Below, one piece after another: positions 32,986 through 53,848 of a stretch of DNA of 64,000 nucleotides. The stretch comes from Escherichia coli (GTDB lineage: Bacteria > Pseudomonadota > Gammaproteobacteria > Enterobacterales > Enterobacteriaceae): the NCBI RefSeq assembly GCF_022846255.1, contig NZ_AP025682.1. One strand, given 5' to 3'. The notes under the pieces are model-generated. The model saw only the letters and a list, made by a program, of their open reading frames with translations, was not told the DNA's origin and made no database searches. A program made the position numbers and the translations under genes. Each line of letters starts with the position of its first letter. Within the stretch, counting starts at the first letter, position 1.

Positions 32986-33147
32986 TGAGGAATATCTCAA
33001 TTTTTAAACATAAAATGCGAATTATTTAGTACAAAAAAGCAGCGTTACGTGATCTTTCCCTGACTGTGTAGGAAAACAGGTTTCCAAGCCCTTCCGAACC
33101 ATTCATGCCTGCAAACAAAAGCAGCTGCGGCGGCACCGCACTACCAC

Positions 33148-33468
33148 TTACTGTGACGTTATGCGCCCCGGACCACCGGCAGCAAGCGACGCCGCCGCAT
33201 CCTGAACTGCACCAGCCATATCCGAGATCCCTGCTGCTGCAGCGGCAGCCTGCGCAGCAGCTACTGCTGCTTTAACCAGACCTGACGGTTCCGGCAACGC
33301 ACCAAACAGGTCCGCCGCTGCCTGTTCTGCCATCTCCTCGGCGGCACCAGATACATCGGTTACGGCTGAACCTGTGCTCATACCGCCACTTTCGCCAGCT
33401 ATTGGTGGTGTGGTGATGACGGGTCCACCGTTTCCAGCTGGTTTGTTACCCGTAGATACAAAACTCAT
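33148..33468 (-). CDS. Hypothetical Ala/Gly-rich small protein
   Basis: 106-aa ORF, low-complexity composition; coding status uncertain. Confidence 0.3.
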
Positions 33469-33492
33469 GATATTTATTCCTTTAATATCGGA

Positions 33493-33864
33493 TTAGAATT
33501 TAGCGCCCGGCTGCCAGAAAAAATAAGAAATAACCCGCCACTGTCCATCTTTATAATGAAAAAAACATGTCAGATTTAAATCCCCCCGCAAATGCCAAAA
33601 CATTTCTTTGATGGGAATATTTCTGAATTCAGTATTCGTTGAGCGATAGGTGTTTTCAATTTCTATATAATACTCACCGACAAATTTATAACGAGGCTTT
33701 ATAAATTCATACGCTGGCTGACCATAGTTATTTAATAGAACATTCTCTTCAACTCCATTATACACACCACTCGCATTCAGATAAGCATGCCCAGGAATAT
33801 CAGACATGCTATTTTTCGCCCCACCCACTATCAAAAAAATTATCACAGCGTATATTAGTTTCAT
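33493..33864 (-). CDS. Small secreted protein, candidate immunity protein for the upstream zincin-like protein
   Basis: N-terminal signal peptide (MKLIYAVIIFLIVGGA); 4-nt overlap with the upstream gene. Confidence 0.5.
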   Translation of the reverse strand: MKLIYAVIIFLIVGGAKNSMSDIPGHAYLNASGVYNGVEENVLLNNYGQPAYEFIKPRYKFVGEYYIEIENTYRSTNTEFRNIPIKEMFWHLRGDLNLTCFFHYKDGQWRVISYFFWQPGAKF

Positions 33865-34601
33865 TTTTTTACGCTTTTCACAAAAAAATTAGAACCCGGA
33901 ACCATTCTATTTAACCGCTCAATGACATTTCTCATATAACGAGAGCGCAGTTCCATACCAATATTCATTAACGCACTGGCGTCCCCGGAGAATGGTGTAG
34001 TTGCTTTATCTGCATCATCACTATAGTATTCATCAGCAAGATATCCAATAATATGCCCAAGCTCGTGAGACAGCCCTATTTGCTCATGGCAAACTTTTGA
34101 TGAGCCAAGACATTTAGCTGCTGCAACTATATCTTTAGAGTCAAGTTCAACGTATCGACTATTCCAGACAATGGAACTCTGTCGAAAACTATTTGGATCA
34201 TCATTATCAATTTTAAACACCACCACATCCCAATACCCATGACGATCAGTCTGAATTATTTCTATTGAGAAAGATAAATCCTTACCATTAAACTTACTGG
34301 CAAACTCAGACTTCCCAGAAACGGATAAAAAAATCTTATTATTCCATGTTTGATTAATGACAAAAATAACTTTCCCATGAAAGGCATTTTTCTCCAAATC
34401 TGTCCAGTCAGTTTTTGCATCCCATCTTTTTATCCAATTATATTTCCATCTCAGCAACAATGAGATTGCACCATTTTCACGGTCAATTCTTAAATCTCCC
34501 CAGGCATCATTGTCCCTGATATATCGTTTATCCAGCATTAAGTCGTCATAAGCATCGTATGCCTGCTGAATAGCTTCATCATGAGAGTCACCCATGTTCA
34601 C
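33861..34601 (-). CDS. Putative zinc metallopeptidase (HExxH zincin), candidate T6SS effector
   Basis: HELGHIIGYLADEY motif; located in the T6SS effector array and paired with a signal-peptide protein. Confidence 0.5.
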   Translation of the reverse strand: MNMGDSHDEAIQQAYDAYDDLMLDKRYIRDNDAWGDLRIDRENGAISLLLRWKYNWIKRWDAKTDWTDLEKNAFHGKVIFVINQTWNNKIFLSVSGKSEFASKFNGKDLSFSIEIIQTDRHGYWDVVVFKIDNDDPNSFRQSSIVWNSRYVELDSKDIVAAAKCLGSSKVCHEQIGLSHELGHIIGYLADEYYSDDADKATTPFSGDASALMNIGMELRSRYMRNVIERLNRMVPGSNFFVKSVKK

Positions 34602-34802
34602 CTCCTTATATTGCTATATATCCAATAAACCTGAAGATGCTTGCTTACCCACCAACGCAGACGGGACCAAGGGTAGCCTGAAGTCAACAGATAGCAGTCA
34701 ACTTGAAGTTCATGGGGATATTTGTTTCCCCATCTACACGTTTATCGTCATATTTTTGTATAGCTATTCTCAGCATTCGTGGGTAGATTATTTTTTTCCA
34801 AC

Positions 34803-34915
34803 CGCAGCGCATCCACATACCGCCCCTCGCTGTTCTGCTGCCACAACCAGCCCTGCCCCTGCTGCGCCTGCGTTAACATTTTTGCTAGCCAGCACGGTCA
34901 CGGCAGGCAATTCCA
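34803..34915 (-). repeat. Degenerate duplicate of the 3' end of tagF
   Basis: ~76 bp near-identical to 35897-35972, then a diverged related stretch; direct orientation. Confidence 0.75.
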
Positions 34916-34924
34916 TGACAGGTA

Positions 34925-35398
34925 CTACTCATCCGTACAACCCAGCCCCCGGCGCTGAACCACTTCACTGGCAAACGTAGCTCCGGTTTTTTTCATTATT
35001 CCTTTTTGTATTTTTTGCAGCGCGGGAAATGAGATTCTCCTGCATGAATCCTCTTCCCATATATCACCAGTTACAGGACTAACTGAAAATAGTCCCCACA
35101 CATCTGTCGCTCCGGCGGAAGGAGAATCATAACCTACCCCAAAACTAAAATACCCAGGATGATACAGGTTACCTTTTTTATCTTTCAGAGAACCGTCAAG
35201 AAAAAACCCAGACAATTCCACATTATATTTTTCATTTTTTAGTGAAAAAACCAATAATGCCTGCGCCTGTATTTCAGTAAGACCTGACTGGTTAACAGTC
35301 GTTAGATCAAACCGCGGCACATTCCTGATAAGAATTTCAGCACAACAATTCACGGACACGACCATGAAAAGCAATACTGATATTAATTTACAGGACAT
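34925..35398 (-). CDS. Secreted protein, candidate immunity protein for the GH73-like effector
   Basis: Signal peptide (MSCKLISVLLFMVVSVNC); overlaps the upstream effector-like gene. Confidence 0.5.
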   Translation of the reverse strand: MSCKLISVLLFMVVSVNCCAEILIRNVPRFDLTTVNQSGLTEIQAQALLVFSLKNEKYNVELSGFFLDGSLKDKKGNLYHPGYFSFGVGYDSPSAGATDVWGLFSVSPVTGDIWEEDSCRRISFPALQKIQKGIMKKTGATFASEVVQRRGLGCTDE

Positions 35399-35853
35399 GT
35401 TATTCTCCGCTTAACCATATTAATCACCCACACTAACTCACTAGCATAACCGGTATGGCCGCCATTACTGTTTTTACCTGAATTAAAACCAGAATCAATC
35501 AATGCCTGCGCAAATTGCTCCGGAGATTTTTTATTTCTGACCGCATTACCAAATCGGATTGCAAAGGACTTTCCGCTAGTTGAAAAAAAGGTATAAGTGG
35601 CAACCCACACTTGATTACTCCCCAGCGGGTGAACCTGTCCTGACTGTAAAGGTGCCGGACCATGCATGGAAAAGTAGTTATTGTATTCTGTCGCGATTCT
35701 ACCCTGCCCGTAAAAGGACTCCTTTGCAGCAAGCCCCAGGATATTTTCCACAGGCACATCAAGTTGCTTAGCGATTAATTCACATTCTTTCAGATATTGC
35801 TGTACAAACCTGACTGCACCAGTGTTATTACAGGCTTTATCATAAGACCCCAT
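35383..35853 (-). CDS. Glucosaminidase (GH73/FlgJ-like) domain protein, candidate T6SS peptidoglycan glycoside hydrolase effector
   Basis: LGLAAKESFYGQGRIATEYNNYFSMHG resembles the FlgJ/GH73 catalytic region; no signal peptide; small (156 aa). Confidence 0.55.
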   Translation of the reverse strand: MGSYDKACNNTGAVRFVQQYLKECELIAKQLDVPVENILGLAAKESFYGQGRIATEYNNYFSMHGPAPLQSGQVHPLGSNQVWVATYTFFSTSGKSFAIRFGNAVRNKKSPEQFAQALIDSGFNSGKNSNGGHTGYASELVWVINMVKRRITCPVN

Positions 35854-35880
35854 GATTCACTACTCCTTGTCTGATTATTT

Positions 35881-36651
35881 TTAATGCGGCCGGATATCCA
35901 GCCGCAACGCATCCACATACCGCCCCTCGCTGTTCTGCTGCCAGAACCAGCCCTGCCCCTGCTGCGCCTGCGTCAGCATTTTGTCCGGCCAGCCCGGCCA
36001 CGGCAGGTGGCGCACACCGGGCAGTTCCACTACCGGCACGTCCGGCAGGCCGGTGAGTTCCCGGCTACGCTGCGGTACACGTCGTAAGCCGCGTAGCCAC
36101 TGCGCCCAGCGCGGCCCCGGTCGCCACATCGCCCAGAGCTGGTCTGTCTGCTCCGCCAGTCGACCGCAGCGTTCTGTCTGTGGTGAGACATGAGCTGCCG
36201 TCAACTGCGCCAGCCAGTACAGCCAGCCCTGTGTGTCATCCAGGCTCTCTTCCAGCCATTCCCGCCCGACACGCTGGTAAATCACCAGTGGCCACGGCCT
36301 GCCCGTACTGTCACGCGAGGCGGTCAGGACCCCGGTCAGCCACTCATCGCGCCCGCCAATGGGGAGAAATCCCGGCGACAGCACAAAACTCCACGGCAAT
36401 GGGTGGTGCTCCGGTAGTGCCGTTTTCTCACGTGGTGACAGGTGCATCCAGCCGTCATTTGTTCCGGCCTTCGCAGCATCCGTTCCTTCCGGCAGAACAA
36501 TATGCCGTCCCTGTCCCAGCCACGTTTGCTGGTTCAGCCACGCCTGCCACACCTGCCCTTCGTTCGCGCTCACTCGCCAGCGCACATAGTCCCGCTGGTC
36601 CGGCAGTCTGCCGAACATCGCCGGGGCCGATATCTCTGCCCGGCGCATCAC
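35881..36651 (-). CDS. tagF: T6SS-associated protein TagF (DUF2094 family)
   Basis: N-terminal FGRLPDQRDYVRWR resembles the TagF GKLPxxGDFVxR signature; Trp-rich; follows tssM as in SPI-6-type clusters. Confidence 0.6.
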   Translation of the reverse strand: MMRRAEISAPAMFGRLPDQRDYVRWRVSANEGQVWQAWLNQQTWLGQGRHIVLPEGTDAAKAGTNDGWMHLSPREKTALPEHHPLPWSFVLSPGFLPIGGRDEWLTGVLTASRDSTGRPWPLVIYQRVGREWLEESLDDTQGWLYWLAQLTAAHVSPQTERCGRLAEQTDQLWAMWRPGPRWAQWLRGLRRVPQRSRELTGLPDVPVVELPGVRHLPWPGWPDKMLTQAQQGQGWFWQQNSEGRYVDALRLDIRPH

Positions 36652-36836: not shown

Positions 36837-37313
36837 TTAATTCAGTTCCCAGAACCAGATTTCCTTGCAGCTAAAATAGCAATGTGAATGACATATAGCA
36901 CCTGTGGTAGAAGGCTCAATAAGATCTATATGACCGCCACCGTAACCCGTAATTTTCCAGAAAAAGACCACTCCTCTTTTATTACTGGTGTCTGTTTTAA
37001 ATTTTTCTGAGTCACACCAGATAACTGGTCTTCCAAAAACATCAGCTCGGGAAAGCTGATCTGCCAGTAATTTCGCACCGGTTTCTATTTTCTTCCCTTT
37101 CCAGTCACCACTTTTGATCGTCAGTCGCCCGTTAAAGCTGACGCCTGATTTAATCAGCGCCAGACTCATACGTGTGGCACAGGTATTTACATAACCAGCA
37201 TTTTGCTGTTGCAGTGCTTCATAGTTATAACCCACTTCACTGTACAAAACATCACCATCAATCTGAACTGATGAGTAATGGTTTTTTTTAAGTGTGAAAA
37301 ATGAAGGTTTCAT
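36837..37313 (-). CDS. Tae4-like type VI amidase effector (papain-like Cys/His peptidoglycan amidase)
   Basis: AGYVNTCATRMSLAL (Cys) and GGGHIDLIEP (His) resemble the Tae4 catalytic motifs as I recall them; 158 aa, no signal peptide. Confidence 0.55.
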   Translation of the reverse strand: MKPSFFTLKKNHYSSVQIDGDVLYSEVGYNYEALQQQNAGYVNTCATRMSLALIKSGVSFNGRLTIKSGDWKGKKIETGAKLLADQLSRADVFGRPVIWCDSEKFKTDTSNKRGVVFFWKITGYGGGHIDLIEPSTTGAICHSHCYFSCKEIWFWELN

Positions 37314-38005
37314 TTATTATTTCCTTTATCACAGGAGTGTTTACTTAGTGCCTCAATAATAATATTTGCAGCCCGTTCATTCAGTTTATCTGACGTTTTT
37401 TTTCTGAAATACCAGTAAATAATCTCATCCAGTGTAACTGTTTTAATCGTTTTATAATCGCACCATGTTTTTCTTTCCGTGGCATCTTCTATACCCAAAA
37501 GATAGATTTTCGCATTAAGCCTATCCTGCCTGTTATCTGACTGCCAGAAGCGGAAAAAATCATCTCCGTTCAGATCGAACGCGCCAGAGGTCAGGTGTGA
37601 AACAGATGAATGCCGGGGAGATTTTTTTTCCGGTGATGCCATATCCGGGCAGGGAAACAGCCTGACCATCGCTTGTTCAATCAGAGTTGAAGCTCGCATA
37701 TTCATATCGTTAACCGACTGCTGATTAAGATATGTCAGTACCGATGAATAAAGTTCTATTTCATTAATCTTATTATATCCACACCAGGTTTTACTTTCTG
37801 TCGCATCACTCACACCAAGGACATACATCAGAACATTTTCTTTTTCCTGTGACGTTCCACGAGCATAAAATGACAAAAATTCCTGCGCACTGAGATTAAT
37901 ATAATCGGGGTCAATAGTTCCTGTGTTTTTTCTGATATCAGCAAAAACATTTCCTGACATGGCATATAACAAAAAAATAATAAAAAAACGCGTATATTGT
38001 TGCAT
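37310..38005 (-). CDS. Secreted tandem-repeat protein, candidate immunity protein (two ~100-aa repeats each with paired Cys)
   Basis: Signal peptide; internal duplication (VLGVSDATESKTWCGYNKI... / LLGIEDATERKTWCDYKTI...). Confidence 0.5.
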   Translation of the reverse strand: MQQYTRFFIIFLLYAMSGNVFADIRKNTGTIDPDYINLSAQEFLSFYARGTSQEKENVLMYVLGVSDATESKTWCGYNKINEIELYSSVLTYLNQQSVNDMNMRASTLIEQAMVRLFPCPDMASPEKKSPRHSSVSHLTSGAFDLNGDDFFRFWQSDNRQDRLNAKIYLLGIEDATERKTWCDYKTIKTVTLDEIIYWYFRKKTSDKLNERAANIIIEALSKHSCDKGNNK

Positions 38006-38251: not shown

Positions 38252-41200
38252 TCACAGCGCTCGCTCCGGGCAGGCGAAGCGTTGTAATAGTCCGCGATCC
38301 ACTGGGTCAAAATCCCGTCCGGCGGTGATTTCCAGTATCACCCGCCGCCCGTCAAAGCTGTACTCCACCTGCTGTGTTCCCCGTACCGCCGTTTCTTGCG
38401 CTTTTCCCGCATCCAGCAGGTGAAACAGCGCCCACGGTCCATTAGTCAGCAGCGTCGAGGTGTCCTGGCGGATGCGCGGGCTGGCGGTTATTTCCGCCAT
38501 TGAGCCGTTGCGCGGACCCGGCCAGTTCACTTTCAGCGGCCTGACCGGGCCGTGAGCGTAACGCAGTACCTGGCCGTCAATGTCAATCACCAGTTCGGTG
38601 ATGGCCGGGTCCATATCCACGACGCGGACCTGCATCGCCCATGAGAACTTTTTCCCTCCGTCGCCGTTAAAAAACACGCTGCGGATCTGTTTCGCCTCCT
38701 GAAACGGCGTCAGGTCTGGACCCTGTAAGGTCATGTTGCCTTCGGTCGGTTTGTAGCGCCACGGGTTGCTGGCGGTATCCGCCAGTGGGGCCAGTTGCTT
38801 CGTCCAGAAGGCATCCAGCACGCCGCCGCTGGCAAAGATACGGTTAAAATCGTCCGCGCTGACCTCCTGCGGGCTGTCGGTGAAGGGGTAGCGCCCGTCG
38901 ATGGCGTCGCGGCACTCATCACCGATCACCGCCTCCATCTGCGCGTTCAGCACTTCACCGGTGCCGGCGTTGATTTTTCGCGTTCCCTGCTGCGTGAGAT
39001 CCAGCAGAATATTTTTCAGCGGCGCGGGCAGTTTTGCCGCCTCCAGTTGCAGTTTATCCGCCGCAGAAATGCGCCCCGGCAGAGTGCTCGCAGCCAGCGC
39101 ACTGTCGGCAATGGTGAGCTGGGTGTAGTACTCATTGAGCATCGTCAGCAGCGAATTTAATTGCGGCACGCCGCCGCCCTGCCCGCTGTCCGTCTGCCCG
39201 GAAACCACTTCCCGCAGGGCGGCGAAACGGTCATCCACCAGTGATTTTTCCAGCCGCTCTTCCGGGTGAATGTCCTGCAACAGCTTCGCCGTCTGCACCG
39301 CTTTTCCCGCATTGCCGGAGAGCCGGTCCTGCGCGCGCTGGGCCATCTGCTTTTGTCTGGCCTGCGCATTCAGCGGCGGCACCAGCGTGGTCTGCTCCAC
39401 CACCGCTTTACTCAGGCGCATCAGCGGGGAATCCGGCGAGGCCAGAGTACGCAGCACCTGAAGGTCATACGCTAGTCCAGGGCTACCGTCCTCCCCGGCG
39501 CTGTTGATGCTGTGAATGCTTGCCAGAAAATCCTGCCATCGGCGAGCATATTCAGCCAGGTACAGACGACGTACCTCACGGGTAACCGGGAGTTCCTGCC
39601 CCGGCAACTGGCTCATCACAATATCAGTCGTTTTTTTTTGCGCACTTTCCCGGCCCATCACCCAGGCGTCGTCCGCTGATGCGGCGGCGACAAACTCCGA
39701 CAGCCGTTTGTCGAACAGTTCCCGGTAGCCTTCGCGGGTGAAGATGCCGGGCACGCCCCTGTCCAGCGGCGCGCCATCCGTGCGGACAAAAACTGTTCCC
39801 GCATCCGCGCCCACAGCGCGAACCAGCGAAAACTCCTGCGGTGCTTCGCTCTCCATGGAAGCCAGGGCTCGAGTGTAGATACGCTCAGTGCTGGTATGGC
39901 CGTCAAGGAAGGCCCGCGCCTGGCGGATCAGCCCCTCATCTTTTTCCCAGGGCGAATGCACCACGCGGCTGCCGTCAAACAGGGCGTCAATATGCTCCAG
40001 CACGGCTGCGCGACCGCCAAACTCCGCTACGCTGTCGCGGTTGTCCAGATCGTTCAGCACCCAGGCGTGGATCTCCGCCGCGTTGTATTTGTCCTCGTGG
40101 TCCTTATCGAGGTTCAGCAGCAGATAAACATGCAGGGCGTCATAGGCGGCTTTGCTGTCCTGACGCGCAATCGCATCTGAAAGCACGTATTCCATTCGTT
40201 TCACCAGCGGAGGGAGCAGTAGCTGGTCCAGCAGGCGGTCATACAGGGATGCGACACTCTCCATCACCGGCGGGACGCTGTAAAGACCATAACGCCAGGC
40301 CAGCGGCGGCGAGTCCGGGTCCAGCCCCGGCCAGGCAGAGAGCGCCCGCGCCTGGTTCAGCAGGGCCGGAACAGGCTGCATAGCAGGTTTTCCGGTATAG
40401 GCTTTGACATCACCATCCAGTTGGGTCGTCCGGCTGGCGATTTCATTCAGATAACCGCTGTTACCCTGCTGGCTACCCTGCATTCCCTGCCACAACCAGA
40501 AAGCCAGCGCCAATACCAGCAGATGCCCGCCGGTACGCAGCAGGCGATAACGCCAGGCCCATTGAAGATTCGGCTCCACCAGGTGCGCTTCGCGGAAGAT
40601 AAACTGCGTCAGTAGATCGTGCAGGAAATAGCTGCGGTTGCCGTCCGGCAGGGTATGGGATGGGGAATCCGCCTTCCCTTTGATCGCCCGGACAAAACGC
40701 TGCCAGATGCCCGTCTGATCGGCCACCGCGTCTGCCTGCGCCTGCGCGGCACTGGTGAAAAATACGCCGCGCAGGGTGTTGTTAAGCTGGGTAGCATCAA
40801 ATTTTGAATCGAGGAAAATCTGTTCAATAGCTTCCAGCAGCGGCGCACCCAGCGCGGCAAATTCACGCGGGAAGCGGTAGAGCCGCTGACGGCTTTTAAG
40901 GTCATATTCTTCCTGCAACCGGGTATCCAGCCCCTGATCCAGCCGCTGTGTCAGGTTTGCCAGTTCCCGGCCACAGAGCGCATGCAGCGACTGCGGATCG
41001 CTGGCGTGACGCCTGCGGCTGTAAGGCAGGGTGAAGCCCCAGACCTGGGCTCGCAGGTGACTGGTCAACCCACGGAAATACTCCGTAAAGCCCGGCAGCA
41101 GATCCATCTTGGTGACAACCAGATAGACCGGAAAACGAATGCCCAGCGTCTCCCGCAGTTCCGCCAGCCGCGCACGCAGAGCTGCACAGGCAGCCAGCCG

Positions 41201-42445: not shown

Positions 42446-42901
42446 TCAAAATTCTCTGGATAGAATAATATAGCCATTGAATCTTACGGAACACTCATTT
42501 TCATTAATAAGGCCGGATGCAATAAAAACATCTTTCCCTCTGTCATTGTTAATATAGGTATATTTTGCCACAATAGACTTGGCATGATTTTCATAGTAGC
42601 TATCAAAATACGATTTTTCATCTAACATTGCCTTCTTATTTCTGGCTTTGTCCTTCTCATAATCAATCTTAGCCAGAGACTCTGCATAAAACTTAGACAC
42701 AGGAGAAACATCAAGAACTTCTACCCTTGTTTTATCTCTTAAAATAGTAGAAGAATTTATATTCAAATCACTTTTCATTGCATCAAATAACGACAACTCT
42801 ATTGAGGCTCCAACCGTAGCGCAACCATCATTTTGTGCATATGAAATTGCAGGTATGCCAGCTAACAGGCAGATTATTACCTTGAACATATTAGTCCTCA
42901 A
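42446..42901 (-). CDS. Secreted protein, candidate immunity protein for the L,D-transpeptidase-like effector
   Basis: Signal peptide (MFKVIICLLAGIPAISYA); overlaps the upstream effector gene. Confidence 0.5.
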   Translation of the reverse strand: MRTNMFKVIICLLAGIPAISYAQNDGCATVGASIELSLFDAMKSDLNINSSTILRDKTRVEVLDVSPVSKFYAESLAKIDYEKDKARNKKAMLDEKSYFDSYYENHAKSIVAKYTYINNDRGKDVFIASGLINENECSVRFNGYIILSREF

Positions 42902-43259
42902 CCACTAATATTTTATCAGTACTGGCAGCAATAACCTTGCGATAAGGTAAATCCAGAATTATACAGCCATCAGAGGCTTCTCCTGGATGGGCTGAACTCT
43001 CTCCGTGTATCATGAAACCGTCACGCCCGCACATTTGATTTTCGGGGTAAGGCGTGAGCCTCATCGTCCATGCTCTTGTTCTGGCATGAAAAAATGCAAG
43101 TCCAATTGTATATGTACCTCTTGGCAATGGTCCCTTATCTCTTACACACTCATTAACAGAGTCATCTTTAAAACCCGGTCTGCCAGAATATCTGGCATTG
43201 AACTGATAGCTACCATTTAAATAAAATGAACGTGCATTAATTTTGTATACCCAAGGCAT
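42891..43259 (-). CDS. YkuD/L,D-transpeptidase-fold protein, Tlde1-like candidate T6SS effector
   Basis: FMIHGESSAHPGEASDGCIIL matches the YkuD catalytic H...SxGC motif; between tssL and tssM. Confidence 0.6.
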   Translation of the reverse strand: MPWVYKINARSFYLNGSYQFNARYSGRPGFKDDSVNECVRDKGPLPRGTYTIGLAFFHARTRAWTMRLTPYPENQMCGRDGFMIHGESSAHPGEASDGCIILDLPYRKVIAASTDKILVVED

Positions 43260-44667: not shown

Positions 44668-46007
44668 TTATCGCGAACTCCCCACAGCTCCAGCTCCAGC
44701 CCTGGAAACTCTCCGGCGGTATGCATTGCCATGCCACCATAGCGGGCGATATGTTCCCACAACACGCCGTCGCGGCGGATGTCGTAATAGATGTAACCGG
44801 ACTGGAACGGGATCTGACGCGGTGGCACTGGCAGCACCTGTAGAACAAGACCAGGAAGGTGCGAGCGAATCAGTTCCGGCAGGCGTTCTGATGGCCCTAT
44901 TTTGGTCTGAGCCGAAAAATGTTGTAGTAAGGTGTCGGCGGACATCTGTGCCTTCACCGCCAATACTAACGAGCTGAAATCTGACAGTTCGGTAGGTTCA
45001 ACCACCGCATTGAGAATACCGTAAGTTCCCTCTTCCAGAGGGATTCGCTGCGCCCCACGTATTAGCACAGCATTCAGCAGATACTGAACCTCGTCCACCA
45101 CCGATTTCAGCCCGGCATAGGGCGTCAGGTGCTTATATTCTTTATATTCTTCCGGACGACGTGTTTGCGGACGCACGTAGGTAGAGAGTTCTCCGGCCAG
45201 TGCGCAGAGGTTACGATAGAGTACTTCAGGCGATAGCGGCGTTTTCGACATATGGATCAATAAGGGGCCGAAACGATTAAGAACTTGCAGAAGCAGGTAA
45301 TCCGACACTTCCGCCGCTTCATGACCGTGTTTGTCGCTCCCCGTCAATCGTTCCGCCAGCGAATCTGCACGCATTTTTATCAGATCGTTAATCCACGACA
45401 GCCAGGTACATATCAGCGTACTGGCCTGGTAGTTCGCCACTGGCGGGATCAACTCTTTGTCTATATCGACCCGACCATCGGGATGCAGCGCCGTGATGCG
45501 CGTCAGCGGCAGGCCGATCCACGCGTCTGTCACCGCCTTTTCCGGTAACAGTCGCAAGCGCAGGTGGCTAAGTTGCAGCAGTTGCGCGCCTCGCCCCAGC
45601 GAATTGGCATCACGGATTTCACTTTCATGTACCGAAAAACGTGCCAGTGATTCAGGGTTATTGTCGAAACTGGTTTCTTCACTGTTCGGCGTACGTATTG
45701 GCACAGCCAGATAAATCAACTGGTTAAGATGTTCTGGAAGGATGGTCAGAGGCGGCGGGAGTGGTGTATGACCCGGCGCATTAAAAGGTGTACCGTCAGC
45801 AAATACCCCGGAAGCCTTCGTAAGTACCAGTTTTCCGATGTTCAGCGCCTCACTACCAATACCATACTCATTGAAGCCCCAGTAAAAAGGTGAAAGAGGC
45901 AAACTGCGATAATGAATGACATGTTCCAGATAGCGTTCCTGCTGCTGAAACATCTGTGGCAACAAAAATTGTCCTTCACTCCAGACCACCCGGTTATTCC
46001 AACTCAT
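44664..46007 (-). CDS. tssK: T6SS baseplate protein TssK
   Basis: 447 aa; N-terminus MSWNNRVVWSEGQFLLPQMFQQQERY typical of TssK. Confidence 0.9.
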   Translation of the reverse strand: MSWNNRVVWSEGQFLLPQMFQQQERYLEHVIHYRSLPLSPFYWGFNEYGIGSEALNIGKLVLTKASGVFADGTPFNAPGHTPLPPPLTILPEHLNQLIYLAVPIRTPNSEETSFDNNPESLARFSVHESEIRDANSLGRGAQLLQLSHLRLRLLPEKAVTDAWIGLPLTRITALHPDGRVDIDKELIPPVANYQASTLICTWLSWINDLIKMRADSLAERLTGSDKHGHEAAEVSDYLLLQVLNRFGPLLIHMSKTPLSPEVLYRNLCALAGELSTYVRPQTRRPEEYKEYKHLTPYAGLKSVVDEVQYLLNAVLIRGAQRIPLEEGTYGILNAVVEPTELSDFSSLVLAVKAQMSADTLLQHFSAQTKIGPSERLPELIRSHLPGLVLQVLPVPPRQIPFQSGYIYYDIRRDGVLWEHIARYGGMAMHTAGEFPGLELELWGVRDK

Positions 46008-46010
46008 AAT

Positions 46011-46565
46011 TTACTCATCCCGTTCTTTAATCACTATGGCGCTTTGCTCTATGCCAGCATCCAGTTCGACTTTTTTCTTTGGCATAAAGCGGCTGTACCA
46101 ACTTTTTTCCGGTGGATCAGGAATTTTATATGTAGCCCGCCAGACCGATTTTCCCAGATTGCGGTATCCGGCGAGGATCCCCAGCGTGGTAGTTTCCTTA
46201 TTGAGGGCGCGGCGTAATTTTTTCTCCTCGCCCGGACGCAGGATAAAGCTGTCGCGGTGGAGTAAATCATCGGCAAGAACAGCCTTGTCATTGTCCTGAA
46301 GGGACCACCAGTCCGCCGCCGTGAAAGCTGCATCAATTTTCAGTTCATAAACGCGTATCTCTATGGGCGCGGCTTTTTTCTGATTGTCAGGATTCACCTT
46401 ATCGGAAGCCTTAATCACCAGATCGAGTCTTTGTGACATCAGGTCCGGCACGTCGTCGCTGTCAATGCTGCACCCGGAAAGCAGGAAGACAAAAGACAAA
46501 GCTACCGCACATAACCACCCACCGGGGTTACGCCATTTATTCACTGTAATTTCCTTTAAAATCAA
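46011..46565 (-). CDS. tssJ: T6SS outer-membrane lipoprotein TssJ
   Basis: Lipobox LLSGC; size and position between hcp and tssK. Confidence 0.8.
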   Translation of the reverse strand: MILKEITVNKWRNPGGWLCAVALSFVFLLSGCSIDSDDVPDLMSQRLDLVIKASDKVNPDNQKKAAPIEIRVYELKIDAAFTAADWWSLQDNDKAVLADDLLHRDSFILRPGEEKKLRRALNKETTTLGILAGYRNLGKSVWRATYKIPDPPEKSWYSRFMPKKKVELDAGIEQSAIVIKERDE

Positions 46566-46611: not shown

Positions 46612-47103
46612 TTAAATTTCTTTGTTAGCTTTGAAATCGTAACCTGCCGTGATAGTGCCGCCGCTGCCGCCCTGCTGGTTCTGCACCACGTATTCCTGCT
46701 TCACGGTGCTGAAAGATAGTTCGACTCTCTCGCGGGAGGCGATCTCACCCTCCTTACTACCACTGGGGGAAACAACAGCCACAATCAGGTCAGTGAAGGT
46801 ATATTTGAGGTATTCCAGCGGATTGCCGCCTGCTTTGCGCATGACAAGGATGGACTTCGGAATATGCTTACCAGAGGCGCAGTATTTGAACAGGTTCGGG
46901 CTAGCGCGATCGATGTAATGTTCAAACTCCAGGTTAGTCACGGAGACTTTGCCGGATCCCAGACCGCTACCTGCGTGCATGGTGGACTCCTGGTGGATAT
47001 TCCAGCGCCAGCTCAGCACCTCAATTTCATTTTTATGTTTGTCATCCATTGACTCGCCGTCAATGCCGTCAATTTTCAGAAAAATGTCATAAGCCATTTT
47101 CAT
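46612..47103 (-). CDS. hcp: T6SS tube protein Hcp (TssD)
   Basis: 163 aa; N-terminus MAYDIFLKIDGIDGES... and overall Hcp pattern. Confidence 0.9.
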   Translation of the reverse strand: MKMAYDIFLKIDGIDGESMDDKHKNEIEVLSWRWNIHQESTMHAGSGLGSGKVSVTNLEFEHYIDRASPNLFKYCASGKHIPKSILVMRKAGGNPLEYLKYTFTDLIVAVVSPSGSKEGEIASRERVELSFSTVKQEYVVQNQQGGSGGTITAGYDFKANKEI

Positions 47104-47276: not shown

Positions 47277-47729
47277 CTATTTACATGTCACAGATACCGA
47301 TGACTCTCCTGGTACCCGCTGCCCCGGCAAAGAAGATGCCTGGCACTGTGTCGCCAATGCAGGGACCGGTTGTGATAACCAAACCTGTCCATGGTTATAA
47401 ATACAGGAAACCCAGTAACGTTCACTATTCTGATTACTGGCCATTGTGGTATCCCATATTTGCCTGGTTTCACCCTTTATTGTCTCTGTCTCTGGTTTTA
47501 GATCCACCCGATTTTCAGGTTTTCCCTGCGACATCCCTACCCCGTCCAACCACAGACGGGGTTCATAGCGGGAAGATCTCTGCCACGATGCAGATATATC
47601 TGGCTCCAGTACTGTTGTTGAGGATTTTATATTGATAAACACGGGGCAACTGACTTCCCACGCAGTAACAAATTGTGAATAAAACAACATAAAACCCAAC
47701 AACAGAGAAAAAATAAAACGTGTCCCCAT
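47277..47729 (-). CDS. Secreted Cys-containing protein, candidate immunity protein
   Basis: Signal peptide (MGTRFIFSLLLGFMLFYSQFVTA); follows a small effector-like ORF. Confidence 0.45.
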   Translation of the reverse strand: MGTRFIFSLLLGFMLFYSQFVTAWEVSCPVFINIKSSTTVLEPDISASWQRSSRYEPRLWLDGVGMSQGKPENRVDLKPETETIKGETRQIWDTTMASNQNSERYWVSCIYNHGQVWLSQPVPALATQCQASSLPGQRVPGESSVSVTCK

Positions 47730-47741
47730 TGAATCTATCCT

Positions 47742-48149
47742 CTACTCAATAATATAAAAAGCTTCCGCATTATTACTGGCATCAGGATATGTTCCATCGC
47801 TGCGCATTCCACCTTTTCGGGAAATAGGGCGTGCAGAGACTTTCGTGGTTTTACCTGTCCACTGGTCCATAACATAAATATACTGACTATCCTGTTCCAG
47901 ATAGAAAGCGGCATGCTTATGCTCATTCTGCCTCGAGGGATACTTTCCGTTAACAAAAGTGGCAATTGCTGTTCCTCTGGGGATCGATTTATCCCCAAAA
48001 ACCTTTCGCCCCTGCTTCCAGGCTCCAGTATTCCCCACATGTGCATATACCTGAACTAAGAACACACATTCCTTTCTGTCTCCTGCCCCCGCCATTCCCA
48101 CCATGTCAGTGCCCTGCAATGAATCTACCAGTCCATAAACATATGCCAT
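47742..48149 (-). CDS. Small putative T6SS effector (unassigned family) between tssC and hcp
   Basis: 135 aa, no signal peptide, single Cys (ECVFLV) and His cluster (NEHKH); sits where SPI-6-type clusters carry tae/tai cassettes. Confidence 0.4.
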   Translation of the reverse strand: MAYVYGLVDSLQGTDMVGMAGAGDRKECVFLVQVYAHVGNTGAWKQGRKVFGDKSIPRGTAIATFVNGKYPSRQNEHKHAAFYLEQDSQYIYVMDQWTGKTTKVSARPISRKGGMRSDGTYPDASNNAEAFYIIE

Positions 48150-48199
48150 ATATCCCCCAGAGTATTACCCGGCATCATTCATTAAAATATTCATAAAAA

Positions 48200-49714
48200 T
48201 CAGGCATTACCCTGTTTTACTGACGGCAGTTTTGTCACCAGACGCAGTGATCCTGTTAACCCTTCAAGCTGAAAATGCGGGCGCAGGAAGAATTTGGCGT
48301 CGTAATAGCCCGGATTCCCCTCCACCTCTTCCACCACCACTTCAGCAGCTGCCAGCGGGCGACGAGCTTTGGTTTCCTGTGAGGAGTTCACCGGATCGGC
48401 ATCGACGTAGTTCATGATCCACTCATTGAGCCAGCGCTGCATATCTTCGCGCTCTTTGAACGAGCCGATCTTGTCGCGCACGATACATTTGAGGAAGTGC
48501 GCAAACCGTGAGCAGGCGAAAAGATATGGCAAACGAGCTGAGAGATTGGCGTTGGCCGTAGCATCCGGATCGTAATACTCCTGCGGTTTTTGTAGAGACT
48601 GCGCGCCAATAAAGGCGGCGTAATCAGAGTTTTTGCGGTGGATAAGTGGGATAAAACCATTTTTCGCCAGTTCAGCTTCACGACGGTCAGAGATGGCAAT
48701 TTCTGTCGGGCATTTCATATCCACGCCGCCGTCATCGGTCGGGAAGGTATGACAGGGCAGATTTTCCACCGCGCCACCAGATTCAACACCGCGGATCAAC
48801 GTACACCAACCGTAATGTTTGAAAGAGCGGTTGATATTTACACCCATTGCATAGGCGGCATTGCTCCAGACATATTTGCTGTGATCTGCGCCATCCGCAT
48901 CTTCTTCAAAATCAAACTCATCGACAGGGTTTGTTTTCGCACCATAAGGCAAACGGGAGAGAAAACGTGGCATCGTCAGGCCAATGTAGCGAGAATCCTC
49001 ACTTTTTCGCAGCGAGTTCCACGGTGCGTATTCGAGGTTTTGGGTCACAATTTTGGTCAGATCACGCGGGTTAGCCAGTTCCTGCCAGGAATCCATCTGC
49101 AACACTGATGGAGAGGCCCCAGCAATAAACGGCGCATGGGCTGAGGCTGCCACTTTGGCAATGGAGCCGAGCAGATCCACATCCGGTGGCGTGTGATCAA
49201 AATAATAATCCGCAATAATACAACCGTAAGGTTCTCCGCCTAACTGCCCATATTCGGCTTCATACAGCTTTTTGAACATGGGGCTTTGATCCCACGCGAT
49301 CCCTTTGTAACGCTTCATATTTTTCCGCAATTCATCCTTCGAAAGGTTCATAAAGCGGATTTTTAATTTTTCATCGGTTTCGGTGTTGTAAACCAAATGT
49401 TCCATCCCACGCCAGGAGGACTCCAGTTTCTGAAATTCCGGATGATTCAGGATTAGTTTGATCTGCTCAGTTAATTTGAAATCGATCTGCTCAATAATTG
49501 CAGCAATACTTTTATAAGCATCATCACTAACAGTGATCGTATTTGTCAGAGCCTGTTGGGCCAGCGTCTGAACTGCCGCCTCAACAGCCTTTGCAGCCTG
49601 AGGAGTCTTGGGACGGAAAGCTTTATCCAGCAGCGAATCAAATTCCGTTTCCTGATAGGCAGTGGTTTGCGCAGCAGAGAGGTCGCCAGTCGCCAGAAGA
49701 GTATCGTTTACCAT
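48200..49714 (-). CDS. tssC: T6SS contractile sheath large subunit TssC (VipB)
   Basis: 504 aa; conserved TssC layout downstream of tssB. Confidence 0.9.
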   Translation of the reverse strand: MVNDTLLATGDLSAAQTTAYQETEFDSLLDKAFRPKTPQAAKAVEAAVQTLAQQALTNTITVSDDAYKSIAAIIEQIDFKLTEQIKLILNHPEFQKLESSWRGMEHLVYNTETDEKLKIRFMNLSKDELRKNMKRYKGIAWDQSPMFKKLYEAEYGQLGGEPYGCIIADYYFDHTPPDVDLLGSIAKVAASAHAPFIAGASPSVLQMDSWQELANPRDLTKIVTQNLEYAPWNSLRKSEDSRYIGLTMPRFLSRLPYGAKTNPVDEFDFEEDADGADHSKYVWSNAAYAMGVNINRSFKHYGWCTLIRGVESGGAVENLPCHTFPTDDGGVDMKCPTEIAISDRREAELAKNGFIPLIHRKNSDYAAFIGAQSLQKPQEYYDPDATANANLSARLPYLFACSRFAHFLKCIVRDKIGSFKEREDMQRWLNEWIMNYVDADPVNSSQETKARRPLAAAEVVVEEVEGNPGYYDAKFFLRPHFQLEGLTGSLRLVTKLPSVKQGNA

Positions 49715-49738
49715 GAAAGTTCCTTAATAAAATCGCAG

Positions 49739-50284
49739 TTAGTCTGCTGTTCCCGTTTCACCTGATAAGACACTTTCCTGTTGAGCGACAGGTTTTGGCG
49801 CGCTGGCCAGAGCTTTCAGTAACGTCGGGTCTTGTAATAGTTTGTTGATCAGATTTTCTGCTCCCGCTTTACCATCCATGTAGGTTTGCAGGTTGGCAAG
49901 CTGAGTACGTGCTTCCAGCAGCTGGTTCAGGGCATCCACCTTACGGGCAATCTGCGCAGGCGAGAAATCGTCCATATTCTCCAGCGTGATATCGACCATC
50001 AACTGCCCTTCGCCCGTCAGCGTATTGGGGACAGCAAACGCCACGCGCGGCGCAATGGCTTTCATCCTCTCGTTGAAGTTATCGATATCAATATCAAGGA
50101 ATTTACGATCGGTGACCGGCGGCAGCTCTTCACGCGGTTTACCCGCCAGGTCGGCCAGCACCGCCATGACAAACGGCAGTTCGATTTTTTTCTCGGAGCC
50201 GTAAATCTCAACGTCATACTCAATCTGCACGCGGGGCGCGCGGTTGCGGGCAATAAACTTCTGCGCGCTGTTGTTGATAGCCAT
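49739..50284 (-). CDS. tssB: T6SS contractile sheath small subunit TssB (VipA)
   Basis: 181 aa; PRVQIEYDVEIYGSEKKIELPFVMAVLADL is the canonical TssB core. Confidence 0.9.
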   Translation of the reverse strand: MAINNSAQKFIARNRAPRVQIEYDVEIYGSEKKIELPFVMAVLADLAGKPREELPPVTDRKFLDIDIDNFNERMKAIAPRVAFAVPNTLTGEGQLMVDITLENMDDFSPAQIARKVDALNQLLEARTQLANLQTYMDGKAGAENLINKLLQDPTLLKALASAPKPVAQQESVLSGETGTAD

Positions 50285-50345
50285 AATCCTTCATTTCCTT
50301 ATCAGTGAGCCGACGACCACCAGGGGAGCGGTTCGACGGTACAGT

Positions 50346-50636
50346 TTAAAAATCATACGCAGAGAGTATTTTTATAATCTCTTTGTTTTCTTTGTACTTT
50401 TCCCGCAGCACAGGGAGTGATTTCTTTGCCGGAGGACACCAGGTATCAACCCCCTTTTCGATGTCTCTTTTATCCTTCTCTGGTAAAGAACTGTCCCATT
50501 CACCAGCAAGATGCTGGCACATTTCCGCATTACTCAGAAAATGCTGCACATCCTGTGGTAAAGGCGGTTCCCCCTGAACACAGAAAGCGAAAATCATTAA
50601 CAGGAATGTCAACAACATCGGATAACGAAATGCCAT
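50346..50636 (-). CDS. Small secreted protein, candidate immunity protein for the M15-like peptidase
   Basis: Signal peptide (MAFRYPMLLTFLLMIFAFCVQG); directly follows the peptidase gene. Confidence 0.5.
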   Translation of the reverse strand: MAFRYPMLLTFLLMIFAFCVQGEPPLPQDVQHFLSNAEMCQHLAGEWDSSLPEKDKRDIEKGVDTWCPPAKKSLPVLREKYKENKEIIKILSAYDF

Positions 50637-50638
50637 AC

Positions 50639-51202
50639 TTAATGTCCATCAATTGACCAGTGAGGTATATCTGTATTGCCGCCAACAAATTTTCTGACGC
50701 CGTAACCCAGACCTACCGCCTGAAGCTGGGCATTCATTCCGGTTCGAGGTAGTGTATTAATTGCAACATTCTGACCATTGCTCCCCGCAATTGTTAATGT
50801 TCCGCTCCAACTGATATTCATATCTATCGCAGTACCGCGTGTATGGTTGGAGCTCAGTGCAGGCGCGACATTCAGATTATTCATACCATAGGCCGTAACC
50901 ATAGCCTGCGCCGCTTCAAGCGAGGCTTGCTCAGTCGGGTGAACCCACTCAATATCCACCCCCTCCATCGCCGGGACGTTTTTTGCCTGAACGATTTCAT
51001 GAGCAATCAACCATGACCAGTGCATGAGATATGCTCTGGCGGGAGGGCGATATGTTGCAGAAATACTGACCCTTGCGCGTGCATTACCAAGCGCTCGCAA
51101 AAAATTATCTACCGATGCACGAAAAGTCCCCTGCAAATCATTAGTGGAAGAACTTCCAGGAAAGCGACTGACCCACAGTGCGCCACTTAATTCTTTTGCC
51201 AT
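50639..51202 (-). CDS. Zinc peptidase M15 (VanY/hedgehog-type) fold protein, candidate peptidoglycan-peptidase T6SS effector
   Basis: SNHTRGTAID matches SxHxxGxAxD and a terminal His (DIPHWSIDGH) is present; no signal peptide; between clpV and tssB. Confidence 0.55.
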   Translation of the reverse strand: MAKELSGALWVSRFPGSSSTNDLQGTFRASVDNFLRALGNARARVSISATYRPPARAYLMHWSWLIAHEIVQAKNVPAMEGVDIEWVHPTEQASLEAAQAMVTAYGMNNLNVAPALSSNHTRGTAIDMNISWSGTLTIAGSNGQNVAINTLPRTGMNAQLQAVGLGYGVRKFVGGNTDIPHWSIDGH

Positions 51203-51214
51203 AAGGATGCTCCA

Positions 51215-53848
51215 TTAATCCGTGTCAAAAATAATCTGTTCATCCTCATCAACACGAATGCGGATTTGCGTGATGGCCGTTTTCTCTGTCATCGCCTGCA
51301 GCCAATAACGGGACAGTTGTGGGAGGATATGTTGTTCGATATAGCCGATGAGCAAACGAGCGCCGGTTTCGTGCATCGGGCAGCGCGACACAATATGCGT
51401 AATCAGTTCATCGCCATACACCAGTGAAACGCCATGCTGCTCCGCCATCCGATCCATCAATCTGCCAAGATGCAGGCGGGCAATAACACCACGCGCGGTC
51501 TCATCCAGCGGTAAATAAGGAATAACCGTCACACGCCCCAGGAAAGCCGCCGGGAAGTGTTTACGTAACTCCGGCATTAACGCCTCTTTTAACCCTGCCG
51601 AATCGGGCATCAGCGCCGGATCCTCACAGAGCTGGCTGATAAGTTCCGCCCCCGCGTTAGTCGTCAACAACAGCGTGGTATTTTTGAAATCGATGTGGAC
51701 ACCTTCGCCATCTTCCATCGCCCCCTTATCAAACACCTGGAAGAACAGCTCGTGGACGTCGTGATGGGCTTTTTCAATTTCATCCAGCAATACCACGCTC
51801 CAGGGATGGCGGCGTACCGCTTCCGTCAACACGCCGCCTTCGCCATAGCCGACGTAGCCGGGCGGCGCGCCTTTCAGAGTGGAGACTGTGTGAGACTCTT
51901 GATACTCGCTCATGTTGATGGTGATCAGATTCTGTTCACCGCCATAGATTGCTTCTGCCAGTGCCAGCGCGGTCTCAGTCTTGCCTACTCCGGACGGCCC
52001 GGCCAGCAAAAAGACACCCACTGGCTTACGCGGGTCACCTAAACCCGCCCGCGCGGTCTGGATACGCTCGCCAATCTGCGCCAACGCATCCATCTGCCCG
52101 GTAACACGCTGCGCCAAACGGGTGGGCAATTCCAGTATCTGACTGGCTTCATCTTTCACCATCCGTCCGGCGGGAATACCGGTCCAGTCGGAGACAATCT
52201 CTGCCACCACGGTTGCACTGACTTCCGGGTACACGACGGGGTTTTCACCCTGCCAGCCTCTTAATGCCGTTTCTGCCTGTTGTAGAGTGATTTCGTCGCG
52301 CTCGCCAGGCGCTGCGCCGCGTTGCTCCTGTAAACTGCGAACCAACTCCAGTTCCTGCTGCCACCGCGCTTCGGTGTCAGAAAGATCGGCATTAAGCGAT
52401 ATAATCCGCGCCGTCAGTACATCGCCCCGCTCCGAGCGGATACCCATTTTTTCCTGCTTTAATAACAACTCCTGCTCCAGTTCGGCAGCGTTGAGCTGCT
52501 GGCGCAGATACTGGACTCTCGCAGGCGGGGTATGCAGCGACAGCGCTACACGGGCCGCCGCCGTATCCAGCAGGCTGATGGCCTTATCCGGTAGTTGCCG
52601 GGCCGGAATGTAACGGTGAGAAAGCTGTACAGCGGCGCGCACGGCCTCATCAAGAATCAGGACATCATGGTGTTCTTCAAGCGTGGTGACTAATCCGCGC
52701 ACCATCTCAACAGCCGCAACCTCTTCCGGCTCAGCAACCTGCAATACCTGAAAACGCCGGGTCAGCGCCGGATCCTTTTCGATATGGCGTTTGTACTCGC
52801 TCCAGGTGGTTGCGCCGATGGTGCGCAGAGTGCCACGCGCCAGCGCCGGTTTCAGCAGGTTGGCAGCATCCCCCGTACCGGATGTACCACCAGCGCCCAC
52901 CAGGGTGTGAACTTCATCAACAAAAAGTATCACCGGCTGCGCCGAGCGCGCGGCCTCTTCCAGCAAAGCTTTCAGGCGGGATTCAAATTCACCCTTCATG
53001 GACGCCCCAGCCAGCAGCGCTCCAACATCCAGTGACAGCAACCGCACGTTACGCAGTGAAGGCGGCACTTCCCCCCCGGCAATCGCCAGCGCGAATCCTT
53101 CCACCACTGCCGTTTTCCCGACCCCCGCCTCGCCGGTCAGCAGCGGATTGTTCTGGCGACGGCGCAGCAGAATATCCGTCATAGTACGGATCTCGTGTTC
53201 GCGTCCGGTGACCGGATCGATATTGCCTTCACGGGCCAGCGCAGTCATGTCCTGGCAGTATTTCGCCAGCGCGGATTTACTTCCGGTTGATTCGCCGGCA
53301 AAGACCTGGCTAGCTTCCCCCGGTACTGCAAAATTTAAATCCGAGCCGTCATAAGGTATTTCTGTTAATTCAGGAGATGAAGCGATTAAAGACGGAAGAA
53401 TATCTAATAGTTCATCTACCGGTAGCCCTGCCAATGGCGCACAGATATTTTTTAACACCCGATACAATTCTGGCGTGGTTAACCAGGCAAGTAATAACCA
53501 TCCACTACGAATTTTTTGATCACCAAAGCGGATACTTGCCAACATCCAGGCTTTTTCAACAGAAAGATCGATATGATGGGAAAAATCGTTAATTACACTC
53601 GCTCCGGCAGGCAATATATTCAATTGCTGAATTAACGCCTTCTCAACATCAGCAGATGTTATTTGATAATGTCGAAGCACATTGTGAATGTCATTCTCTG
53701 GTTGTTGTATTAACTGATGCAACCAATGCGTCAGTTCGACATAAGGATTAGCGCGTAATTTACAGAACGTCGTCGCAGATTCCAAAGATCTAAACAAAGA
53801 TTTGGTTAGCTTTCCATACAGTGCACTGCGCGAAACAGGAGTGTCCAT
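51215..53848 (-). CDS. clpV: T6SS AAA+ ATPase ClpV (TssH)
   Basis: 877 aa; two AAA+ modules with Walker A motifs GEAGVGKT and GPSGVGKT; ClpB-like without middle-domain expansion. Confidence 0.9.
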   Translation of the reverse strand: MDTPVSRSALYGKLTKSLFRSLESATTFCKLRANPYVELTHWLHQLIQQPENDIHNVLRHYQITSADVEKALIQQLNILPAGASVINDFSHHIDLSVEKAWMLASIRFGDQKIRSGWLLLAWLTTPELYRVLKNICAPLAGLPVDELLDILPSLIASSPELTEIPYDGSDLNFAVPGEASQVFAGESTGSKSALAKYCQDMTALAREGNIDPVTGREHEIRTMTDILLRRRQNNPLLTGEAGVGKTAVVEGFALAIAGGEVPPSLRNVRLLSLDVGALLAGASMKGEFESRLKALLEEAARSAQPVILFVDEVHTLVGAGGTSGTGDAANLLKPALARGTLRTIGATTWSEYKRHIEKDPALTRRFQVLQVAEPEEVAAVEMVRGLVTTLEEHHDVLILDEAVRAAVQLSHRYIPARQLPDKAISLLDTAAARVALSLHTPPARVQYLRQQLNAAELEQELLLKQEKMGIRSERGDVLTARIISLNADLSDTEARWQQELELVRSLQEQRGAAPGERDEITLQQAETALRGWQGENPVVYPEVSATVVAEIVSDWTGIPAGRMVKDEASQILELPTRLAQRVTGQMDALAQIGERIQTARAGLGDPRKPVGVFLLAGPSGVGKTETALALAEAIYGGEQNLITINMSEYQESHTVSTLKGAPPGYVGYGEGGVLTEAVRRHPWSVVLLDEIEKAHHDVHELFFQVFDKGAMEDGEGVHIDFKNTTLLLTTNAGAELISQLCEDPALMPDSAGLKEALMPELRKHFPAAFLGRVTVIPYLPLDETARGVIARLHLGRLMDRMAEQHGVSLVYGDELITHIVSRCPMHETGARLLIGYIEQHILPQLSRYWLQAMTEKTAITQIRIRVDEDEQIIFDTD

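Follow-up and report, generated by a model that had tools for sequence, protein, structure and literature searches.

The window analysed here, a stretch of 64,000 nucleotides of Escherichia coli DNA (contig NZ_AP025682.1 of assembly GCF_022846255.1), contains a type VI secretion system (T6SS) island located between yafV and the tRNA-Asp gene aspV, which resembles the T6SS of SPI-6, a pathogenicity island of Salmonella. Comparison with related genomes indicates that the spike module of this cluster, which comprises vgrG and the gene of a PAAR-Rhs toxin, has very probably been removed by a deletion associated with ISEc1, an insertion sequence (IS) of the H-repeat type. All that is left of vgrG is a 5' stub, cut exactly at the terminus of an ISEc1 copy, whereas strain E04 keeps the module. 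The preliminary description of this DNA had proposed an H-repeat-mediated loss of a vgrG-rhs module, and this proposal is supported; the two H-repeat elements that it had placed after the T6SS are real, and correspond to ISAs1-family ISEc1 copies between the T6SS and yafV. The features that meet around the breakpoint are the following.

29757-30527, plus strand: yafV (2-oxoglutaramate amidase), at the chromosomal edge of the island (NCBIfam PRK10438, 546 bits; yafV in the E04 annotation)
30558-31771, minus strand: ISEc1 copy A, 1,214 bp, beside yafV (NF033564, 413 bits; six-copy alignment)
31772-33062, minus strand: ISEc1 copy B, complete, 1,291 bp, with both inverted repeats (CAGGG...CCCTG; NF033564, 307 and 97 bits)
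33063-33468, minus strand: vgrG 5' stub, corresponding to nucleotides 1-407 of E04 vgrG (tblastn and nucleotide alignment)

The boundaries of the ISs were set by aligning six ISEc1/ISAs1 copies, some of them found in the window and the others in two E. coli genomes; this alignment gives CAGGG(A/C/T)AAGA(T/C)TACG... and ...CGTGATCTTTCCCTG as the two ends of ISEc1. The elements have the features of the ISAs1 family and of ISEc1: a size of about 1.3 kb, inverted repeats of the CAGGG type and one ISAs1-type DDE transposase. Copy A occupies the site by yafV where the relatives have their ISEc1, and is 98.9% identical to the yafV-proximal copy of a group of draft genomes (L023-L027); its transposase gene is intact (30568-31704, 378 aa) and its left inverted repeat is kept, but the right inverted repeat is gone with the rest of its final 77 bp. 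The inverted repeats of copy B agree at 13 of their first 15 positions, and its transposase gene is divided into open reading frames (ORFs) of 275 and 100 aa by a single nonsense codon, E276* (32091-32093). The two copies differ at 29 positions.

The right inverted repeat of copy B (...GATCTTTCCCTG) is joined base for base to nucleotide 407 of vgrG, and its left inverted repeat abuts the interior of copy A, 77 bp short of the end of that copy. Copy B has no target-site duplication: its left flank is CTTCAGGTAA and its right flank, on the vgrG side, begins with ACTGTGTAGG. By comparison, an ISAs1-family copy of strain 2012C-4502 (L003 copy b) is flanked by a 10-bp target duplication, TTGTTAAACC. 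The absence of a duplication around copy B is no argument against its identity as an IS, because it is what a deletion or a recombination after insertion predicts.

The stub itself contains a 106-aa ORF (33148-33468, minus strand) which is the N-terminus of VgrG, its residues 1-101 being 99% identical to those of E04 VgrG according to tblastn. A frameshift of 1 nt, from G5 to G4, is present near 33168, and beyond it the vgrG frame runs to 33063. The intact VgrG, of 737 aa, is composed of a Phage_GPD domain (126-434), an OB domain (489-556) and a gp5 C-terminal domain (573-680). The stub covers residues 1-135, only ten of which belong to Phage_GPD, and it has no OB or gp5 C-terminal domain. Judging from this domain content, nothing functional is left of vgrG.

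It had been stated earlier that the window has neither vgrG nor PAAR gene, and no ORF of VgrG size or composition. The absence of intact VgrG, PAAR and Rhs genes stands, but an ORF of VgrG composition does exist, namely that of the stub. When five VgrG and five Rhs/PAAR proteins from relatives were compared by tblastn to the six frames of the 64 kb, the stub was the single matching locus. A Pfam scan of the small unassigned ORFs, which did not cover all six frames of the 64 kb, found no PAAR, and in the corresponding regions of the relatives Rhs is the sole gene named after PAAR. The window therefore contains no TssI/VgrG in the sense of a protein with a gp27-like hub, an OB fold and a gp5 C-terminal domain, and no spike-tip protein, whether a stand-alone PAAR or a PAAR fused to an effector.

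In E04, the genes are arranged in the order tssM, tai4, tae4, tagF, a 244-aa gene, a 123-aa gene, vgrG, Eag, Rhs, immunity gene, rhs fragment, ISEc1 and yafV, and the module encodes the 737-aa VgrG, a DcrB-like Eag chaperone, a prePAAR/PAAR-Rhs protein of 1,369 aa and RhsI. The nucleotide identity between the window and E04 is 99.8% from tagF to clpV, over 17.4 kb. It is 99.35% in the stretch that begins at the 244-aa gene and enters vgrG, where the similarity ends at the IS terminus. About 7.2 kb are missing in comparison to E04: the vgrG sequence beyond the stub, the genes of the Eag/DcrB-type chaperone and of the prePAAR/PAAR-Rhs toxin, the immunity gene and orphan rhs pieces. The N-terminus of Rhs in the relatives' module contains prePAAR_I, PAAR_motif and DUF6531; the PAAR tip is therefore part of the Rhs toxin protein, and both were lost together.

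The intact VgrG-Eag-PAAR-Rhs module is also present in AR_0077, 24A16CRGN010, R32_14_1F and drafts which share the YafV protein. Relatives were expected to retain vgrG-rhs after tagF, and this is indeed the case for E04, four other annotated relatives and several drafts. In the best 25 relatives listed, the homologous vgrG 5' end belongs to a gene annotated as Vgr family or phage late control D (VgrG type) in 25 of 25. The genomes that have the exact YafV protein (L023-L030) have another backbone, 97-99.5% identical, and a divergent vgrG, in the order ISEc1, rhs array, PAAR-Rhs, Eag, VgrG. Three relatives have a vgrG 5' stub of about 770 nt followed by a second, complete effector-vgrG-eag-rhs module (L002 8638-9411, L010 8999-9771 and L011 9018-9769). 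Module replacement via recombination inside vgrG appears to be common at this locus.

The ends of copy B join sequences which are more than 7 kb apart in the relatives, and one of the two breakpoints is the IS terminus to the base, which is the signature of an IS-associated deletion. The insertion site of copy B would have been vgrG or the end of copy A, and the interval would then have been removed by a deletion adjoining one end of copy B, or by recombination between two ISEc1 copies. Either route, adjacent deletion or recombination between two insertions, may have been followed.

Several points weigh against an ISEc1-associated deletion. To our knowledge, neither the transposition chemistry of the ISAs1 family nor its ability to produce adjacent deletions is established. 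The junction of copies A and B was not recovered from independent data, a look-up of the 275-aa ORF of copy B having given no match. A metagenome contig (L004) shares the stub-IS junction, but to the left of copy B it has another sequence, which also bears on the order of events: the stub and copy B are followed by a 1.08-kb spacer (toxin tip, immunity and symE-like) and by another IS. Finally, the transposition of H-repeats has been stated as not observed (PMC3032704).

The status of L004 is itself ambiguous. Its spacer has no match in the complete-genome relatives, and draft genomes match only about 200 bp of it, at 81%. The L004 IS differs from copy B by 22 single-nucleotide polymorphisms (SNPs), which are all clustered within 565 bp (32093-32658), both ends being identical; this block would reflect a chimera of the metagenome assembly or else gene conversion between copies of ISEc1. 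The nonsense codon of copy B (32091-32093) is at the edge of the block. L004 may represent an older state or an assembly chimera, and because of the possible chimera it was not relied on as an intermediate form.

The loss could be only apparent if copy B were a simple ISEc1 insertion in vgrG and the assembler had skipped about 7 kb between IS copies, the module being present in the genome. Misjoins classically occur at IS repeats, the junction of copies A and B was not recovered elsewhere, and L004 exits copy B into a different sequence. Such an artefact is nonetheless improbable: the copies are distinct at 29 positions, and the interior of copy A is joined to an intact left inverted repeat of copy B, a specific and novel junction that a collapse would not make. 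The vgrG-IS junction is confirmed in ten independent contigs, and vgrG would be broken at codon 136 even so. It is even harder to believe that homologous recombination between vgrG or rhs repeats caused the loss, with the IS as a bystander. Relatives do swap modules, leaving 770-nt vgrG stubs, evidently through recombination inside vgrG, and tblastn initially stretched the VgrG similarity 30 nt beyond the junction, to 33032. These 30 nt, however, are the terminal inverted repeat common to all ISEc1 copies; the breakpoint falls, to the base, at the IS terminus, and there is no vgrG or rhs sequence on its far side. The candidate vgrG-like fragment beside the IS was rejected on the basis of the six-copy alignment, which attributes its bases to the inverted repeat.

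The idea that a vgrG-less layout is ancestral for this type of T6SS, vgrG being always encoded in trans, deserves hardly any credence, since the window has a vgrG stub and every relative examined has VgrG-Eag-PAAR-Rhs downstream of tagF. The layout is derived, as the preliminary description had supposed: E04 holds vgrG-eag-prePAAR/PAAR-rhs-rhsI at the position where the window has the stub.

The vgrG-IS junction was found in none of the 5,426 complete E. coli genomes, and its exact 42-mer has no match in the GTDB species-representative genomes. It is present in ten independent public contigs, from one NCBI assembly (GCA_005387665.1), two Logan runs (DRR102846 and SRR7532986) and seven metagenome assemblies of the European Nucleotide Archive (ENA). 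The junction is therefore real, and a marker of a circulating lineage. The carriers are about 5 SNPs apart across 13 kb of the island, and the event is therefore recent. The G5/G4 run of the stub is polymorphic: L007 has the junction with G5, and L015 (SRR7533023) has the G4 frameshift in a vgrG which is not truncated. Such polymorphism is expected for a dead gene; it results from either recurrent slippage or a vgrG that was dead already before the deletion.

VgrG is the hub of the baseplate and the spike, and one of the 13 core components of the T6SS. PAAR sharpens the tip of the spike and is required for efficient assembly in Rhs-type systems. A locus without VgrG hub/spike and PAAR tip therefore cannot assemble or fire by itself, and it follows logically that it works only if another part of the genome encodes a compatible VgrG (and PAAR). 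We lean towards a T6SS that is inactive in this lineage.

A functional apparatus, using VgrG and PAAR from an orphan vgrG island or from another chromosomal T6SS cluster, would be the less expected outcome, but several observations speak for it and against inactivity. Neither the 12 remaining core genes nor the accessory genes show decay, 4,177 of the 5,426 complete E. coli genomes match the vgrG query at least weakly, and vgrG is often found in orphan regions in E. coli (bioRxiv 10.1101/2025.01.23.634537). The intactness of the core is uninformative, however, and argues neither way, because the deletion is recent (5 SNPs per 13 kb, and 99.8% identity to an armed relative). The genomes that match the vgrG query do so at a median of 2 places, and the matches mostly have 60-80% nucleotide identity, about 70%, over a short conserved segment, which assigns these other vgrG genes to other T6SS classes. 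The spikes of different T6SS classes are generally not interchangeable. In addition, the stub itself is gathering a frameshift.

It is doubtful that the lineage keeps the apparatus and the cargo pairs because it fires with a VgrG/PAAR that belongs to an orphan island or to a T6SS of another class; if it did, the borrowed spike would be a case of natural cross-class spike complementation. The remaining immunity genes (Tai4, Tgi2PP and others) would still protect the bacterium against armed kin.

The 12 other core components (TssA, B, C, E, F, G, J, K, L and M, Hcp and ClpV) had been described as intact, which NCBIfam and the comparison with E04 confirm. These 12 proteins and TagF, TagJ and TagK align end to end and without gaps with the annotated proteins of E04, to which they are 98.5-100% identical. 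The core and accessory genes, and the second boundary of the island, are listed below.

35881-36648, minus strand: TagF, 255 aa (TIGR03373; residues 1-251 97.6% identical to E04 TagF)
38252-42118, minus strand: tssM (TIGR03348, 1065 bits; 99.8% identical to E04)
43351-44667, minus strand: tssL (NCBIfam; 100% identical to E04)
44664-46007, minus strand: tssK (NCBIfam; 100% identical to E04)
46011-46544, minus strand: tssJ (NCBIfam; 100% identical to E04)
46612-47097, minus strand: hcp (NCBIfam; 100% identical to E04)
47277-48149, minus strand: STY0301-family and BPSL0067-family proteins (NCBIfam)
48200-49714, minus strand: tssC (NCBIfam; 99.5-100% identical to E04)
49739-50284, minus strand: tssB (NCBIfam; 99.5-100% identical to E04)
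50346-50636 and 50639-51202, minus strand: two ORFs lying between tssB and clpV (96 and 187 aa)
51215-53848, minus strand: clpV/tssH (NCBIfam; 99.5-100% identical to E04)
54181-55095, plus strand: tagK (NCBIfam; 98.5-100% identical to E04)
55082-55912, plus strand: tagJ (named from a relative's annotation; 98.5-100% identical to E04)
55909-56403, plus strand: tssE (NCBIfam; 98.5-100% identical to E04)
56419-58302, plus strand: tssF (NCBIfam; 100% identical to E04)
58299-59294, plus strand: tssG (NCBIfam; 98.5-100% identical to E04)
59305-60351, plus strand: tssA (NCBIfam and E04 annotation; 98.5-100% identical to E04)
60483-60559, minus strand: tRNA-Asp (aspV), the other boundary of the island (ARAGORN; E04 annotation)

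The NCBIfam score of TssA, 149.5 bits, is slightly below the curated cut-off of 160.85, and its E04 counterpart is annotated as TssA. Hcp matches solved structures of the Hcp1 family with E = 1e-102, and PA0085 of the H1 system of P. aeruginosa with 1e-37. The conserved ORFs of 96 and 187 aa (50346-51202) obtained no significant family assignment. ARAGORN also called a 94-nt tRNA-His at 58085-58178, inside tssF; this is a false positive, TssF being intact and 100% identical to that of E04.

The preliminary description had also noted small effector/immunity cassettes after tagF, and these are indeed present, one made up of a glucosaminidase and Tgi2PP, the other of an HExxH protein of 244 aa and its 123-aa partner. 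With these, the effector and immunity genes of the locus are as follows.

33493-33864, minus strand: 123-aa protein with a hydrophobic N-terminus, directly upstream of vgrG (100% identical to E04)
33861-34595, minus strand: 244-aa protein with an HELGH motif (100% identical to E04; weak Peptidase_M64 match)
34751-34906, minus strand: duplicated tagF 3' remnant, residues 215-266 of E04 TagF (tblastn; partial TagF in the relatives' annotation)
34925-35398, minus strand: Tgi2PP-family T6SS immunity protein, 157 aa (Pfam PF21576)
35383-35853, minus strand: glucosaminidase-domain T6SS effector, 156 aa (Pfam PF01832; weak FlgJ match)
36837-37313, minus strand: Tae4-family amidase effector (Pfam families of identical L004 genes; PDB Ssp1/Tae4, E = 2e-54)
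37310-38005, minus strand: Rap1a/Tai4-type immunity protein (Pfam families of identical L004 genes)
42446-42889, minus strand: 147-aa partner of the Tlde1-domain effector
42891-43259, minus strand: Tlde1-domain effector (PF10908; E04 annotation)

Pfam and NCBIfam assign the 123-aa and 244-aa proteins to no family, apart from the weak Peptidase_M64 match of the latter. The two genes are directly upstream of vgrG in all relatives. The 123-aa protein is probably an immunity protein, and the pair is probably an uncharacterised, putative VgrG-linked effector/immunity pair. The glucosaminidase/Tgi2PP cassette, of about 990 bp (34797-36007), lies between two 111-bp copies of the 3' end of tagF which are 90% identical, and is present in only 8 of the 5,426 complete E. 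coli genomes. From this arrangement, it looks as if the cassette was gained through recombination inside tagF. A sequence search with the Tlde1 homologue returned no relative with a solved structure. Altogether, five or six intact effector/immunity pairs remain at the locus.

Outside the island, the window consists of flagellar and housekeeping genes, as far as large ORFs are concerned. Positions 1-23072 are occupied by an intact lateral-flagellar (Flag-2) cluster, from flgG to lfhA, and all large ORFs within 1-24000 are Flag-2 genes; beyond it, yafL to yafV are followed by the T6SS island, aspV and then dnaQ, rnhA, yafS and gloB. The identity of the island to E. coli genomes reaches 99.8%, with E04, whereas the best match of the Flag-2 cluster among complete E. 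coli genomes is only 96.7%; the island and the backbone therefore have separate histories. This type of T6SS is uncommon, a full-length tssM of the same kind being found in 112 of the 5,426 complete E. coli genomes. Among the 144 complete genomes which match the tssM of the window, 32 retain less than 80% of the gene. In the five listed examples of reduced tssM, a 532-bp piece remains, flanked by a vgrG fragment and tssA. These genomes are further decay states of the same island.

The overall significance of these observations is modest. They describe a clean and datable disarming of a T6SS, in which the spike and the PAAR-Rhs toxin were lost in one step and the apparatus and immunity genes were kept, and they provide a fixed junction sequence by which a circulating E. 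coli lineage can be recognised, as it was in ten public data sets. They also give sequence-level support to the idea that ISEc1/H-repeat elements are mobile now or were so recently. When the completeness of a T6SS is scored by gene presence, stubs should be checked before an orphan vgrG is invoked.

Regarding known systems, the cluster resembles the SPI-6 T6SS of Salmonella and the type found in E. coli E04 by its insertion at aspV, by TagF, TagJ and TagK, and by its Tae4/Tai4 and Tlde1 pairs as cargo effectors, which are the features of a SPI-6-like cluster. Its subclass would be T6SS-i3, for which the similarity of Hcp to PA0085 gives indirect support. SPI-6 varies in two regions, one downstream of icmF/tssM and the other, with Rhs elements, downstream of vgrG (PMC2907695), and the window shares both. 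Unlike SPI-6 and E04, it has a vgrG cut to 407 nt, it has lost eag, PAAR-rhs and rhsI, and it has an extra glucosaminidase/Tgi2PP cassette after tagF. The lost module, as seen in the relatives, is of the class I prePAAR effector type (VgrG, a DcrB/DUF1795-type chaperone, a prePAAR_I/PAAR Rhs and an immunity gene); unlike such modules, the window retains only the first 135 codons of vgrG.

H-repeats are classical companions of Rhs. The ISEc1 copies are similar to the H-repeats of the E. coli Rhs loci: they have the length of 1,291 bp, the CAGGG termini and the ISAs1-family transposase, and they are located downstream of rhs among orphan C-terminal tips. In contrast with the view that H-repeats are immobile, copy B ends precisely inside vgrG, and near-identical relatives have no such junction. 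The precise vgrG junction and the 10-bp duplication in 2012C-4502 are modest evidence of ISEc1/H-repeat mobility. If the deletion is indeed associated with ISEc1, the junction would be natural evidence that this supposedly immobile element can still move and produce deletions.

In Salmonella, T6SS islands are known that contain pseudogenes or have internal deletions (PMC2907695). In E. coli, ISEc12 in tssM disables the T6SS of clade C of sequence type 131 (ST131), and deletions occur in ST410 (PMC10711316; bioRxiv 10.1101/2025.01.23.634537). A literature search on ISEc1 together with vgrG returned matches which mostly concern ISEc12. As in the ST131 and ST410 losses, a clonal lineage has an otherwise conserved T6SS, a single IS event and a fixed junction sequence. 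Unlike in ST131, the T6SS is of another class, the element is ISEc1 (ISAs1 family), the target is vgrG, and the event is the deletion of a spike/effector module, not a simple insertion with target duplication. This loss represents a new allele within a type of decay that is well known.

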